Below are positions 53,723 through 57,928 of a DNA stretch of 64,000 nt, in pieces. The position numbers were made by a program, and so were the translations under genes. Numbering within the stretch: position 1 is the first letter of the stretch; the number at the start of each line of letters is the position of its first letter. The DNA is from Candidatus Micrarchaeia archaeon (lineage in GTDB: Archaea > Micrarchaeota > Micrarchaeia > CAILAH01), in NCBI GenBank assembly GCA_038874595.1, contig JAVZCB010000002.1:152715-216714 (forward strand), given 5' to 3'. Under the pieces are notes generated by a model. That model made no database searches. It was not told the origin of the DNA and was given only the letters and a program-made list of their open reading frames with translations.

Positions 53723-56700
53723 TTACCATATCAAGATGATATTCAAGCCGGTATTAAATACGACAGACTCATACCCAGTTTTTGGGTCTTTGTAGAACAG
53801 CAAACTGTTTTTATCTAGATTAATATATGCATTTAAAGTTAATCCAGGTGCGGTCCATCTTGTAAGGTTTACATCTAGGTTAAGGCGATGTTTTTCTTCG
53901 TATGGTGTTAGCCAATAAACATACCCGCCGTGTACAGACCATTCATCAAAATAGCCCCTGCTAAGCGTTTCGCCACCGCCGATTATAAGTGCGAGCTCGT
54001 GCGCCTTCTCACCTTTACCGATTGTGCCGCCCCATCGTGTTTTTGCCTCTTCTTCTGCAATTTGAGTCAGCCACCCTGCACCCGCGTCAAGGAACCCCCC
54101 TAATAAGTAATACCTGCCAATAGCACTTGATTCATATGTTTTTGATTTCGTGCTTCCTTTCTTATCTACCTGCTGGTAGTATGAAATAGGAACAAGCTGC
54201 AGCCGCAGGCCACCATATTCAATAAGAGAGGTTGCACCTATAGCTTGTAGATCACCCATAGAAGTAATCTGTATGGCCGGGCTTATTTTGAGCTCATTGT
54301 CAGTAAGTTTCCAAAGCCATACTTTTGCAGAGCCACCGCCTCCAACAAGTACCCCAGTACCTGGTCCTGTAGTTGCACCAGCAATTTCAAGCTGCAATTT
54401 TCCAAACTTAGCCCCTCCACCAAATAAATTAAGTGAAAGGTCCTTCTGTGCTTTCTCCCATTCTTTACCATTAATATAGTAAAGCCGCACCTGTGTTATC
54501 CTCCCTAATTTGTCCCTCTTTATTTCTGCACCGCCGAATACGCCATTCTTCTCATCTGCACCTTTTTGATAAACCTCAACAACCTTGACATTATTGATAC
54601 CGCCCCATTGCTCAAAGAAATATCTCATCCCTGCTGCCTGTGTCACTCCTGTATATTTTTCATATGCTTGTGCCGCAACTGATGCGGTAATCATAAACGC
54701 CTTATCACTTGCTGCATAATATGTCCTACCAACCCCGCCCGGCCTGATATCCTCCCTCTCACCATACGCTGCAACTATACCCGTACCACCAATTCCAAAA
54801 TACCCCCACGGCCTTACCGCCCTGCTCATTGCACCAAGCCTGAGCGTCTCTGAAGTTGCAGATACGAATGCGTCAGAGTAATACTCATTGCTCTCAGCAA
54901 ACATTAACTCCACAGCAGCGCCCTTTTCAGCCTTTTCACCTATAAGTTTCTCTTTTGTGAGCTGCGGCCTTGCCCCAATGGATTCTTTTCGTGTTATGGG
55001 CTCGCCAGTGGTTGTTTGTGTCGCCGGTGCCGGCTCCTTAAATAAAATCTCACCATTGTAATTATTTGCAAACTCCGGGTTTATGTATAGAATGCCAGCC
55101 CAAATCTTGTTTTTGTTTGGCTGGTATGACATAACACCAGCACCCTTATCAGGGCCGGCTTGCTTATGCTCATATCTTACACCGGCACCTGCTTTTCCGT
55201 ACTCCATCGCAACGCCTACACCCTGGAACATCTTTTCCTTTTCACCGAACAAGTCCTTATCAAAGAACAAAACAGCCGCACCCTCCTGCCGTGTGCTGAA
55301 GTTCTTTGCCTTGTCCCACTGCTGGTGCCATACCCCATACATCTGCTGTGCCTCACGAGGTGTTATCTCAAATGTTCCTGCGTAAACCCACACGCCATCC
55401 TGCTTCCTGAATACCTCTGCGTTCATACCCCTGTGCTCTATATCCCCTCCTTTTTCAATTGACTCGTAATCAAAAACAACAGCAGTCACTGCACCACCGG
55501 GAGCAAGATGCTCAAACGAGAGTTCAGCAAACTTATCAGCACTAACACGTTGTGTCTGAGTTTCCTTTACACCCTTACTCATTATTTGTTGTTGGGTTGT
55601 TTCCTGGCGGGTTACATTATAATATAACCTTCCATCCTTGAACACACCTCCCCCAGGTATGTTTCCCACATTTAAATCTGCAGTAAACCTGTCACTTATA
55701 TTTTCTGTGATTTCAGGCCCTTCCTTCCCTAAGCCTACCTTGTTGCTCACAGTACCCTTCTCATAAGTTATCTCTGTAGCTTCCGCTTTCATGCCAGGAC
55801 CGTATGCACCGCCCCTCCCACTAATTTTGTATTGCTCCAGTGCGCTCTTGTCAGGCCCAGCAAATGTACTGTATGAGTTCCCGCTCCCTTCAAGGCCAAG
55901 CATCCCAACATCCAACTCGCCAAGCTTTGGCACATTAGTTGGTGCAAGCGCGTACAAGTCAAGATCAAAGTTAATTACAGAAATATCCATCTCAGGCTCA
56001 GTTATATTAAGTTGCACTATTGGCCCCATCGTTTTCATATATGCCTGCTCAAAATTTTGCATAAGTGCAAGCGGCCCGGCAAATAAGTTAGGATACTGCC
56101 GTATCACAAGCGAAGCCCTTTCATCAAATGTTGAGCCTTCCGCAGCATTCAGCTTTTCAATTGCAGCAGTCAAATCCTGGTTTTCAAAAAGCGTGAGGTA
56201 CCTGTTAATTGCTATCTGTGCCGCAGGATTAAACAAGTCGAAATATTCCTTACCGCCCGGCTGGCCTATCTTTGCAGTCTTTGGAGTTTCACGCGTCCTC
56301 TCCCACACCCTATAAATGTTCCACATCAGGATGGCACTCAGCTTTGTATCAAGCTCGCTCACGTACCTGTTCAACCCATCCAGGTCCCGCGCATTATTGA
56401 ACAGGTTCATGTAAGACCCAGTGTATATCATTATCTTTGGAATATCCACTGCGTCGAAGTTTCTTAGTATCCGCTCAGCATATTGTGATATGAACAACGG
56501 CGCATAATTATCCGGCATGCTCCTTGCTCCAAGGATGAGTGCAGCCAGCTTTTCATTGCCGGGTTTAACCTTCTCATTAATCTCAAGAATTTCCTTCTGT
56601 GTCCTTAAGTCCAGCGCATTAAAAGTTGACCATACGATAGAGCCATCTAAATCCTTATACTGGCTTTTTAGGTTTTTATCCGTCGAATACCACGAGCTAA

Positions 56701-57928
56701 AACTATCATAAAGCCGCTGTTTTCTTGCAAGGAATTCTTTATCTTTTGCAATCTCTGTGATATTTGTTAGGTAATTACCTTTCTCCCCCTCAAAAGAATA
56801 CCCCTTCATAAGCCGCTCCTTGATAGATTTTCCGTAAGACCCATACTTTTCAAGCCCATCTAGCTTTTCCCTTATCGCAGTTTCCCGCAGTGCCAGGCTT
56901 TGGGTATACGCTGAAACTTCACTTATACCCTTTAAGGATTCACTGTATCCTATTATCTCTGCCCTGATTGCTTTTACACTGGTGGCAAGCCCCTTTATTT
57001 TACCAATCTCCTGATTGAAGTTCAGCTCGTTATACTCTCCCTTAAAACCAAGTTCTTTCAGGAACCCTTGAATATACGCATCGCGCTCTTTACCGCTAAG
57101 TTTTGATATAACAATCATCACCTGGTCGCATTTTCCATCCAGGTATTGCACCCAGTACTCTCCGATGTAATACGTGTACGGCTTGTTCTCCCTCTCGCCT
57201 TTCAACAGTTCAAGGATCTTTTCAGCATCCTTTTTGCCCTGCTCCCTCCTCTTGGCCAGCGTCTTTTCCAGCTCCTCTGCCGGTATCTGGCGTGGTGAAG
57301 GCGGTGACGGGATATGGCCATATTCAAATTCAGGAAGTTCACCAACAGCCTTTTTAGGAGTAACACGTTGAGGAACTGCCTCTTTCATCTGCTTAGGTAT
57401 CCTTTCTGATGCATTTTTAACAAGCGATTTTGCATCTTTCAGGAAGTTGTCTGGAGTTGCAACACCTTCTCTAATATCTTTCTGTAAGACAGCATAAACG
57501 TAAAGCAATCGCTTACCAAGGTAATTATCTTCATTGTTTTTTAGGTATTCCTTTTGCTCTTCTGTTAAATATTTAACACCCTCAATTTTAAGCCATTCTT
57601 CACGCGTTATTTTCTTATCACCATACACTCTCTTCTTATCCATGTATTTCCTGTCTTCTTCCAATCCCTTATAGCCTGTTGTGTAAGCCTTATCTATAAT
57701 TTTACTAAGCTCCTCTGAAACATTTTTCCTTGCATCTTCTCTGCTAACTTCTGTTTTTTGCGCCACCATAATATCTCCACCTTTATCATTATCTTTCATT
57801 CTTTTTATTTCTTTCCATATAGGTGAAGTGTCATTACGTATGCTGTTCGAGTATACAGGCGGCGCAATAAGCAATTGCCCTGCAACCAGCACAGCAGAAA
57901 TTGTTCTCTTTAGATTGTAGCTTTTCAT
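53723..57928 (-). CDS. 1401-aa secreted protein: helical N-half and predicted beta-barrel C-half
   Basis: Signal peptide MKSYNLKRTISAVLVAGQLLIA; the C-terminal ~700 aa consist of Gly/aromatic amphipathic strands; ends FNTGLNIILIW. Confidence 0.75.
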   Translation of the reverse strand: MKSYNLKRTISAVLVAGQLLIAPPVYSNSIRNDTSPIWKEIKRMKDNDKGGDIMVAQKTEVSREDARKNVSEELSKIIDKAYTTGYKGLEEDRKYMDKKRVYGDKKITREEWLKIEGVKYLTEEQKEYLKNNEDNYLGKRLLYVYAVLQKDIREGVATPDNFLKDAKSLVKNASERIPKQMKEAVPQRVTPKKAVGELPEFEYGHIPSPPSPRQIPAEELEKTLAKRREQGKKDAEKILELLKGERENKPYTYYIGEYWVQYLDGKCDQVMIVISKLSGKERDAYIQGFLKELGFKGEYNELNFNQEIGKIKGLATSVKAIRAEIIGYSESLKGISEVSAYTQSLALRETAIREKLDGLEKYGSYGKSIKERLMKGYSFEGEKGNYLTNITEIAKDKEFLARKQRLYDSFSSWYSTDKNLKSQYKDLDGSIVWSTFNALDLRTQKEILEINEKVKPGNEKLAALILGARSMPDNYAPLFISQYAERILRNFDAVDIPKIMIYTGSYMNLFNNARDLDGLNRYVSELDTKLSAILMWNIYRVWERTRETPKTAKIGQPGGKEYFDLFNPAAQIAINRYLTLFENQDLTAAIEKLNAAEGSTFDERASLVIRQYPNLFAGPLALMQNFEQAYMKTMGPIVQLNITEPEMDISVINFDLDLYALAPTNVPKLGELDVGMLGLEGSGNSYSTFAGPDKSALEQYKISGRGGAYGPGMKAEATEITYEKGTVSNKVGLGKEGPEITENISDRFTADLNVGNIPGGGVFKDGRLYYNVTRQETTQQQIMSKGVKETQTQRVSADKFAELSFEHLAPGGAVTAVVFDYESIEKGGDIEHRGMNAEVFRKQDGVWVYAGTFEITPREAQQMYGVWHQQWDKAKNFSTRQEGAAVLFFDKDLFGEKEKMFQGVGVAMEYGKAGAGVRYEHKQAGPDKGAGVMSYQPNKNKIWAGILYINPEFANNYNGEILFKEPAPATQTTTGEPITRKESIGARPQLTKEKLIGEKAEKGAAVELMFAESNEYYSDAFVSATSETLRLGAMSRAVRPWGYFGIGGTGIVAAYGEREDIRPGGVGRTYYAASDKAFMITASVAAQAYEKYTGVTQAAGMRYFFEQWGGINNVKVVEVYQKGADEKNGVFGGAEIKRDKLGRITQVRLYYINGKEWEKAQKDLSLNLFGGGAKFGKLQLEIAGATTGPGTGVLVGGGGSAKVWLWKLTDNELKISPAIQITSMGDLQAIGATSLIEYGGLRLQLVPISYYQQVDKKGSTKSKTYESSAIGRYYLLGGFLDAGAGWLTQIAEEEAKTRWGGTIGKGEKAHELALIIGGGETLSRGYFDEWSVHGGYVYWLTPYEEKHRLNLDVNLTRWTAPGLTLNAYINLDKNSLLFYKDPKTGYESVVFNTGLNIILIW

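Follow-up and report, generated by a model that had tools for sequence, protein, structure and literature searches.

A family of giant proteins in Micrarchaeia with a predicted outer-membrane-type β-barrel fold

Introduction

Transmembrane β-barrels count as a hallmark of the outer membranes of bacteria and organelles. Porins, substrate channels and ushers comprise 14–24 strands, and MtrB with 26 and SprA with 36 strands are among the largest barrels known. In bacterial outer-membrane proteins, the last strand alternates and ends in an aromatic residue. MtrB and SprA reside in bacterial outer membranes built by the β-barrel assembly machinery (BAM). A different architecture is that of the OmpM/SlpA tethers: Deinococcus radiodurans SlpA is exported and continues from a long helical region into a very large C-terminal barrel. 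Here we describe a protein of 1401 amino acids (aa), in the following called the giant, which is encoded in a 64,000-nt stretch of contig JAVZCB010000002.1 from Candidatus Micrarchaeia archaeon (assembly GCA_038874595.1; this whole stretch is referred to as the window). According to structure prediction, its C-terminal half probably belongs to the fold class of outer-membrane barrels. It represents a conserved archaeal family with a predicted barrel fold and a β-signal-like end, found in cells that lack Omp85 and apparently have no outer membrane. In the literature searched, we found no paper describing such a barrel family of the Micrarchaeota. The nearest mention in this literature is a passing note on a possible distant relative of PopA in Altiarchaeales (PMC12228718).

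The cell envelope of the group has been reinterpreted in recent years. Early electron cryo-microscopy of archaeal Richmond Mine acidophilic nanoorganisms (ARMAN) was taken to show two membranes, as recounted in a later study (bioRxiv 10.1101/2021.04.28.441871), which assigned to the envelope of Ca. Micrarchaeum harzensis a surface layer (S-layer) and not a second membrane. Cryo-tomography of the cultivated Micrarchaeote ARM-1 likewise identified the supposed outer membrane as an S-layer (PMC11329633). The connection between DPANN archaea and their hosts has so far been seen in tomograms only; among the structures seen is a large barrel-shaped complex of unassigned identity, which lies beneath the S-layer of ARM-1 where host nanotubes dock (PMC11329633). 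M. harzensis relies on the lipids of its host (PMC8975820).

Results

Open reading frame and composition

The minus strand of the window at positions 53723–57928 is occupied by a single open reading frame (ORF) of 1401 aa plus stop. All motifs quoted in a preliminary description of this locus, which had been made from the sequence alone, are present in it: GVGVAMEYGKAGAGVRYEH (residues 903–921), WGYFGIGGTG (1041–1050), GFLDAGAGW (1278–1286), WSVHGGYVYW (1330–1339), HRLNLDVNLTRW (1347–1358) and GLTLNAYINL (1362–1371), as well as the C-terminal end FNTGLNIILIW with its terminal Trp. That description had let the strand-rich part begin at about position 55900, in protein numbering residue 676; in the model, the first strand starts at residue 674. 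It had also noted about 650 aa of charged helical sequence in front of this part. Residues 28–640 are indeed charged (K 10.8%, E 9.6%, grand average of hydropathy -0.66), and their helical character is presumed from this composition. In residues 901–1401, Gly accounts for 13.8% and F, W and Y together for 11.6%, and Cys is absent.

A scan of the whole protein returned a sole hydrophobic 19-mer at residues 9–27 (Kyte-Doolittle 1.46; runner-up window 0.99); therefore, there is no helical anchor beyond the signal-like start, in agreement with the earlier proposal. The hydrophobic residues are preceded by the basic MKSYNLKR and followed by VYS/NS, and an MKSY/MRTY...A-x-S start pattern is common to the homologues of the same family. 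One homologue (G280, L018:183-5090) has a lipobox-like ILSAGC closing the signal region, so some members may be lipid-anchored. Residues ~420–640 are among the best-conserved modules in the family alignment, and the earliest cross-family matches covered residues 424–754. For the N-terminal half, no lead was obtained from the PDB, Pfam or an Atlas feature search.

Predicted fold of the C-terminal half

We modelled residues 640–1401 with AlphaFold2 based on a 30-sequence alignment and assigned secondary structure by DSSP. The model, with a mean predicted local distance difference test score (pLDDT) of 67.2 and a predicted template modelling score (pTM) of 0.46, consists of about 30 long antiparallel strands of roughly 8–17 residues each, which are joined by hairpins in an up-and-down order. 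The five models span mean pLDDT values of 61–67, and the last 200 residues reach 80–97. Prediction from the single sequence (pLDDT 32.6) was uninformative. In most strands a two-residue periodicity is conserved, such that on family average ~60% of the residues are hydrophobic on one face and ~33% on the other. The polar faces of the 1401-aa protein have many N, G, S, T and Q residues rather than K or E. By its sequence, this face pattern would fit a water-filled barrel, but also the core of a β-sandwich.

Foldseek searches against the PDB yielded 125 matches at E<=1e-3 (best E 3e-8, TM-score 0.1–0.36), the leading ones being FimD/PapC ushers, FadL, OccK and MOMP, all of them outer-membrane barrels. 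Likewise, when the model was compared with 48,161 representative chains by VIA-align, without a Foldseek pre-filter, 93 chains reached Z>=8, and the best 50 were all outer-membrane or organelle barrels (Z 10.2–15.9). Neither among these best 50 nor among the leading Foldseek matches did we find a sandwich, a propeller or a solenoid, the folds which the preliminary description had set against a barrel. The structural matches listed also include no aerolysin-type fold and no lipid-transfer groove of the TamB/AsmA type. A language-model feature search pointed, with a value of 0.88, to clusters of Slam and OmpG; this is below the reliability line and serves as a lead only. Taken together, the model probably belongs to the outer-membrane-barrel fold class. 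Because the TM-scores are low and the rmsd values high, this is a likeness to a fold class and to no specific barrel. The curvature of the model is predicted to be that of a large barrel, either a single one with some 30 strands or a pair of smaller barrels. In this respect the very large barrel suggested earlier has gained support as a predicted fold class.

The known barrels resemble the model to different degrees. The highest Z values (14–15.9) were obtained for CymA (4d5b), OccK/OpdQ (3t24), chitoporin (7vtz), MOMP (5ldt) and the FimD/PapC ushers, at a root-mean-square deviation (rmsd) of 8–11 Å; the strand counts of these porins and ushers are about half of that of the model, TM-scores amount to 0.1–0.36 and there is no sequence relationship. 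Of the best 50 VIA-align matches, SprA (6h3i_A; Z 13.8, 5.2 Å over 270 residues) and MtrB (6r2q_B; Z 12.6, 5.3 Å over 268) gave the lowest rmsd for the whole model at comparable aligned length. They share with it the long hairpin-connected strands and the wide sheet of low curvature. With 8–9% identity and no Pfam match, however, there is no sequence similarity, and whereas MtrB and SprA are found in BAM-built membranes, the archaeon encoding the giant has no Omp85 and probably no outer membrane.

Within the Omp85 superfamily, model residues 517–762 (protein residues 1156–1401) could be superposed on chain F of the Chlamydomonas TOC-TIC structure (7vcf_F, presumably Toc75) with Z 11.4 and 3.9 Å over 208 residues, the lowest rmsd of all matches. 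Model residues 526–762 (protein residues 1165–1401) superpose on PopA and on the barrel of TamA (8us4; Z 10.2, 6.3 Å over 202), and the same C-terminal part on BamA (9n2d; Z 10.8, 6.7 Å over 199). This likeness covers a part of the strand array only, and the genome of the giant has no match to POTRA or Omp85. SlpA complexes were found among the structural matches as well (7zgx_A in VIA-align, Z 11.6; 8agd_A in Foldseek). The overall layout of SlpA, with its helical region followed by a barrel, is like that of the giant, but the model superposes on it poorly (rmsd 16.7 Å). Moreover, SlpA itself carries a surface-layer homology (SLH) domain for wall binding and a trimeric coiled-coil stalk, whereas in the case of the giant a PG_binding_1 domain resides on a separate neighbouring protein without export signal.

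At the sequence level, the 1401-aa protein had no match in Pfam, NCBIfam, PHROGs or the PDB sequences, searched as a single protein and, for the PDB, with profiles too; the NCBIfam result includes the S-layer profiles TIGR01564 and TIGR01567. None of the 30 family members matched an outer-membrane-protein family at E<=1. PF01117 (aerolysin-type) was seen in two of them at an insignificant E of 0.09.

Conserved C-terminus

For 25 members (24 genomic sequences and one metagenomic piece), the C-terminus could be read to its end. Position -1 is aromatic in 20 of them (F 12, Y 5, W 3), as compared to 65 of 779 ORFs (8%) in the genome of the giant. Position -3 is hydrophobic or Gly in 19/25, position -7 is hydrophobic in 19/25, and position -2 is mainly polar. 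As relatives are non-independent samples, we read the 20/25 terminal aromatics as conservation in the sequences and attach no p-value. The likeness to the bacterial β-signal, first noticed in the single sequence, thus extends across the family.

Outside the window, contig C3 of the same genome (G000) carries a second ORF, of 638 aa (95783–97699, plus strand), with an outer-membrane-protein-like tail (...NGLFTLNLRW). It is located directly upstream of C3:97706-102532, which encodes a protein of 1608 aa whose start is signal-like. The two may constitute a second pair of barrel and giant.

Organism and distribution of the family

The assembly comprises 918 kb in seven contigs and is 93.5% complete. 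It contains archaeal small- and large-subunit rRNA, and the closest homologous loci, three in number and retrieved with a 4-sequence alignment, are from metagenome-assembled genomes titled Candidatus Micrarchaeum sp., Micrarchaeia archaeon and Micrarchaeota archaeon. Both observations bear out the assignment of the DNA to an archaeon, as previously given. The archaeal 16S rRNA match at L001:1501-3589 extends over 2089 bases as compared to 1478 positions of the model, so that an insertion or intron of ~600 bases is probable in this gene.

An exhaustive phmmer search with residues 650–1401 against 1.84 billion representatives retrieved four relatives, namely two full-length proteins (1425 and 1491 aa) and two fragments; no bacterial homologue was among these representatives, which argues against contamination or recent transfer. 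We rejected a recent bacterial transfer or contamination also in view of the archaeal genes on the contig and the archaeal rRNA in the assembly. Nothing points to a viral origin either, since high-probability matches in a viral fold library were confined to phage-borne look-alikes of porins and autotransporters.

The profile of the C-terminal part was then applied in six-frame searches of sampled Micrarchaeia genomes, 25 of 401 of which were positive. In the giant's own family, it was detected in 6/8 genomes, and both negatives are just 61–64% complete. Positives in other Micrarchaeia families amounted to 13/81, 2/3, 2/18 and 1/1, with zero in the remaining families searched. A full search of a second (sister) family gave 21 positive genomes out of 99. 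In many genomes the homologous frames are open across ~1250–2200 aa. Judged from these sequences, the giant is encoded by a real gene that is under selection, is confined to the Micrarchaeia and occurs patchily beyond one family. In G047, the corresponding slot (L020:10100-14702) is occupied by two overlapping ORFs of 775 and 805 aa, the first with a family-like signal start; neither matched the barrel profile. This pair may be a frameshifted or replaced copy of the giant.

Gene neighbourhood

The features of the giant and its immediate neighbours are compiled in Table 1.

Table 1. Features of the giant and of adjacent genes in the window (residue numbers refer to the 1401-aa protein)
Feature	Position	Strand	Basis
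Last strand (residues 1384–1401), β-signal-like, hydrophobic at -3/-5/-7, terminal Trp	53726..53779	-	25-sequence C-terminus tally
Sixteen hairpin-connected strands (residues 1115–1401), highest model confidence	53726..54586	-	AlphaFold2
Two long helices between strands (residues 1074–1112)	54593..54709	-	AlphaFold2
Nine strands (residues 903–1073), disordered loop 954–998	54710..55222	-	AlphaFold2; conserved alternating hydrophobicity in family alignment
Conserved α/β insert (helix, three strands, helix), residues 797–873	55310..55540	-	AlphaFold2 and family alignment
Five long strands (15–17 residues each), residues 674–780, Gly/Ser/Thr-rich, variable	55589..55909	-	AlphaFold2 DSSP, pLDDT 55–83
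Charged N-terminal half (residues 28–640), K/E-rich, presumed helical	56009..57847	-	Composition
Sec-type signal peptide or uncleaved signal anchor (residues 1–27)	57848..57928	-	Basic n-region, 17-residue hydrophobic core, VYS/NS
PG_binding_1 protein, 525 aa, no signal peptide, co-directional, immediately upstream of the giant	57992..59569	-	Pfam E 1.7e-8, hydropathy
311-aa protein, no known domain, no signal peptide, next upstream gene	59622..60557	-	39% identity to the G023 gene in the corresponding place

According to BLAST and Pfam searches, the PG_binding_1 (endolysin-type) neighbour upstream of the giant is found in three genera of the own family (including G023 and G017). In this family the giant keeps its position: it faces a conserved 150-aa gene in convergent orientation and adjoins genes for a nucleotidyl-transferase and a phosphoglucomutase (sugar-nucleotide genes). 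The same-strand run that ends in the giant is headed by a 236-aa ankyrin-repeat protein (Ank_2, E 4e-22; window 60558-61268, minus strand). Further on, at 61734-63140 of the plus strand, the window encodes a protein of 468 aa with a Kazal-type protease-inhibitor domain (E 4.5e-5); its start is strongly hydrophobic, with a lipobox-like LFGC at the end.

In the sister family, a different co-directional order was observed, in which a giant of 1800–2700 aa is followed by a middle protein of ~730–830 aa and then by the barrel giant. Relatives of the middle protein stand upstream of the barrel giant in seven genomes of this family, with only 330–344 aa in two of them, and both copies scanned against Pfam contain a GDSL lipase/acylhydrolase domain. 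The upstream neighbours in the sister family carry no signal peptides. Such clusters were seen at L017:1037-19901 and L019:7226-19901 as well as in L094, L095, L096, L102 and L103. Sometimes they include a further giant of 1700–2900 aa, which is N-terminally similar to the family and ends with an aromatic residue in 2/3 cases seen; adjacent giants of 1922 and 2904 aa gave no match to the C-terminal profile at E<=1e-3, their N-terminal similarity notwithstanding. Several proteins of the sister-family clusters are nearly free of lysine (0.0–0.5% K, 10–14% R), one example having 0.0% K in 1590 aa. By their position, the wall-binding and lipase domains beside the putative barrel would suggest an action on the envelope of another cell.

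Insertase and S-layer

We found no match to PF01103 (Omp85) or PF07244 (POTRA) at E<=0.1 in the 93.5%-complete genome; the same search returned matches in 7/7 diderm bacteria used as controls. The lack of Omp85 or BamA had been anticipated in the preliminary description. Its other premise, an outer-membrane-like layer of ARMAN cells, has been superseded by an S-layer for two cultivated lineages, and an S-layer gene is present here as well (915 aa, contig C4, TIGR01564 match above the cut-off; distinct from the giant). Because of the S-layer in cultivated relatives and the S-layer gene in this genome, it is unlikely that the archaeon has its own outer membrane, which weakens the earlier option of a barrel in the archaeon's own outer layer. 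With an S-layer encoded and Omp85 lacking, it is therefore improbable that the barrel is a porin in an outer membrane built by BAM. In a cell without its own outer membrane, a barrel that is hydrophobic on the outside would need a partner membrane, a contact zone or an oligomeric assembly.

Discussion

We propose that the giant is a genuine, vertically inherited and Micrarchaeia-specific envelope protein, the barrel of which would act as a channel or anchor at a cell-cell contact, and put the probability of this reading as a whole at about one half. According to our proposal, the protein would be exported through Sec via its N-terminal signal. Its charged, probably helical half of ~640 residues would stay on the cell side, and its C-terminal half of ~730 residues would fold as an up-and-down barrel of the outer-membrane type with ~30 strands, forming one large barrel or two smaller ones. 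The α/β insert, in which Tyr864 is invariant in the family, may represent a plug or docking domain, and together with the helical hairpin it could plug or gate the barrel. The last strand with its conserved terminal aromatic would close the barrel. We picture the barrel in the membrane of a partner cell or in the contact zone, from where the helical half would bridge back to the archaeon, and its role as that of a wide channel or anchor at a cell-cell contact on which the symbiont depends. The PG-binding neighbour and, in the sister family, the GDSL-domain protein would act at the same interface.

The individual components of this proposal do not carry the same weight. That the barrel is embedded in the lipid of some membrane is conceivable, with the odds somewhat against it. 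A conduit in the membrane of a host is an unlikely, though not far-fetched, specification. Equally doubtful is the boldest form of the proposal, in which the family would be the first of transmembrane β-barrels of archaeal origin, set in a partner membrane as a conduit for lipids and metabolites and with the neighbouring proteins acting at the same interface. In this form, insertion would take place spontaneously or, with a diderm bacterium as the partner, by way of that cell's BAM reading the conserved C-terminal signal.

Several points weigh against the proposal. To our knowledge, a transmembrane β-barrel has been shown in no archaeon so far, and the membranes of the probable hosts are tetraether monolayers, for which we know of no precedent of β-barrel insertion. 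The pTM is 0.46 and one fifth of the model lies below a pLDDT of 50; the alignment underlying it comprises just 30 sequences, which are mutually related. TM-scores range from 0.1 to 0.36 only and rmsd values are mostly 8–11 Å. Closure of the barrel, strand count, hydrophobic belt and aromatic girdles are features predicted at most, and the alternating hydrophobicity would be compatible with a β-sandwich too. Finally, the neighbouring proteins are without export signals, and may thus be linked to the giant by position alone.

Among the alternatives, the one that fares best is a soluble or S-layer-associated, β-rich surface protein, i.e. an adhesin or scaffold made of sandwiches, solenoids or a sheet buried in an oligomer. 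The barrel would then be an AlphaFold artefact, provoked by the shallowness of the alignment together with Gly/aromatic amphipathic strands, and the terminal aromatic would pack into a hydrophobic core. Such a protein would be at home in an envelope of one membrane plus S-layer, as described for cultivated Micrarchaeota (bioRxiv 10.1101/2021.04.28.441871; PMC11329633) and in keeping with the S-layer gene found here, and it would not call for the insertase that the genome lacks. The modest pTM and TM-scores, the uninformative single-sequence model and the failure of every member to match an outer-membrane-protein family by sequence are in line with it as well. We nevertheless regard it as rather unlikely, since the searches with the model returned zero sandwiches, propellers or solenoids among the best 50 VIA-align or the leading Foldseek matches, the strands are long (12–17 residues) and connected by simple hairpins, their polar faces are rich in N/G/S/T/Q instead of K/E, and the last 200 residues were predicted with a pLDDT of 80–97.

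The endolysin-type PG_binding_1 and GDSL lipase neighbours, the export signal of the giant and the variation of its loops between homologues could also be reconciled with a secreted attack protein, whose barrel would permeabilise or lyse a bacterial or archaeal target with the aid of wall-binding or lipase neighbours, as a weapon and not as a stable conduit. Known β pore-forming toxins, however, are oligomeric barrels of short hairpins and not monomers of ~30 strands, and the aerolysin match (2/30 members, E 0.09) is insignificant. As the giant is moreover a stable chromosomal core gene in its own family, located on no island, and the neighbours lack an export signal, we consider this explanation improbable.

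Least probable by our estimate, if only slightly less so than the attack protein, is a porin-like or tether protein in a true lipid outer membrane of the archaeon, analogous to OmpM/SlpA, with the helical stalk pointing inward and a non-Omp85 machinery reading the C-terminal aromatic: the combination of a helical half with a ~30-strand barrel, the SlpA complexes 7zgx_A and 8agd_A among the matches, the conserved β-signal-like end and the early two-membrane view of ARMAN cells, as cited in bioRxiv 10.1101/2021.04.28.441871, would speak for it, but for both cultivated lineages an S-layer has since taken the place of the second membrane in this view (bioRxiv 10.1101/2021.04.28.441871; PMC11329633), the genome encodes an S-layer protein and no Omp85/POTRA, a patchy occurrence in 25/401 genomes would be odd for an essential outer-membrane component, and the rmsd to SlpA is 16.7 Å.

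Should the barrel prediction fail, the giant would still be a well-defined orphan protein of the envelope, belonging to the core of Micrarchaeaceae-like genomes. If the prediction holds, either BAM is dispensable for making and using such barrels, or the symbiont places them in the membrane of another cell. Either way, the family would provide a concrete molecular candidate for the connection between DPANN archaea and their hosts.

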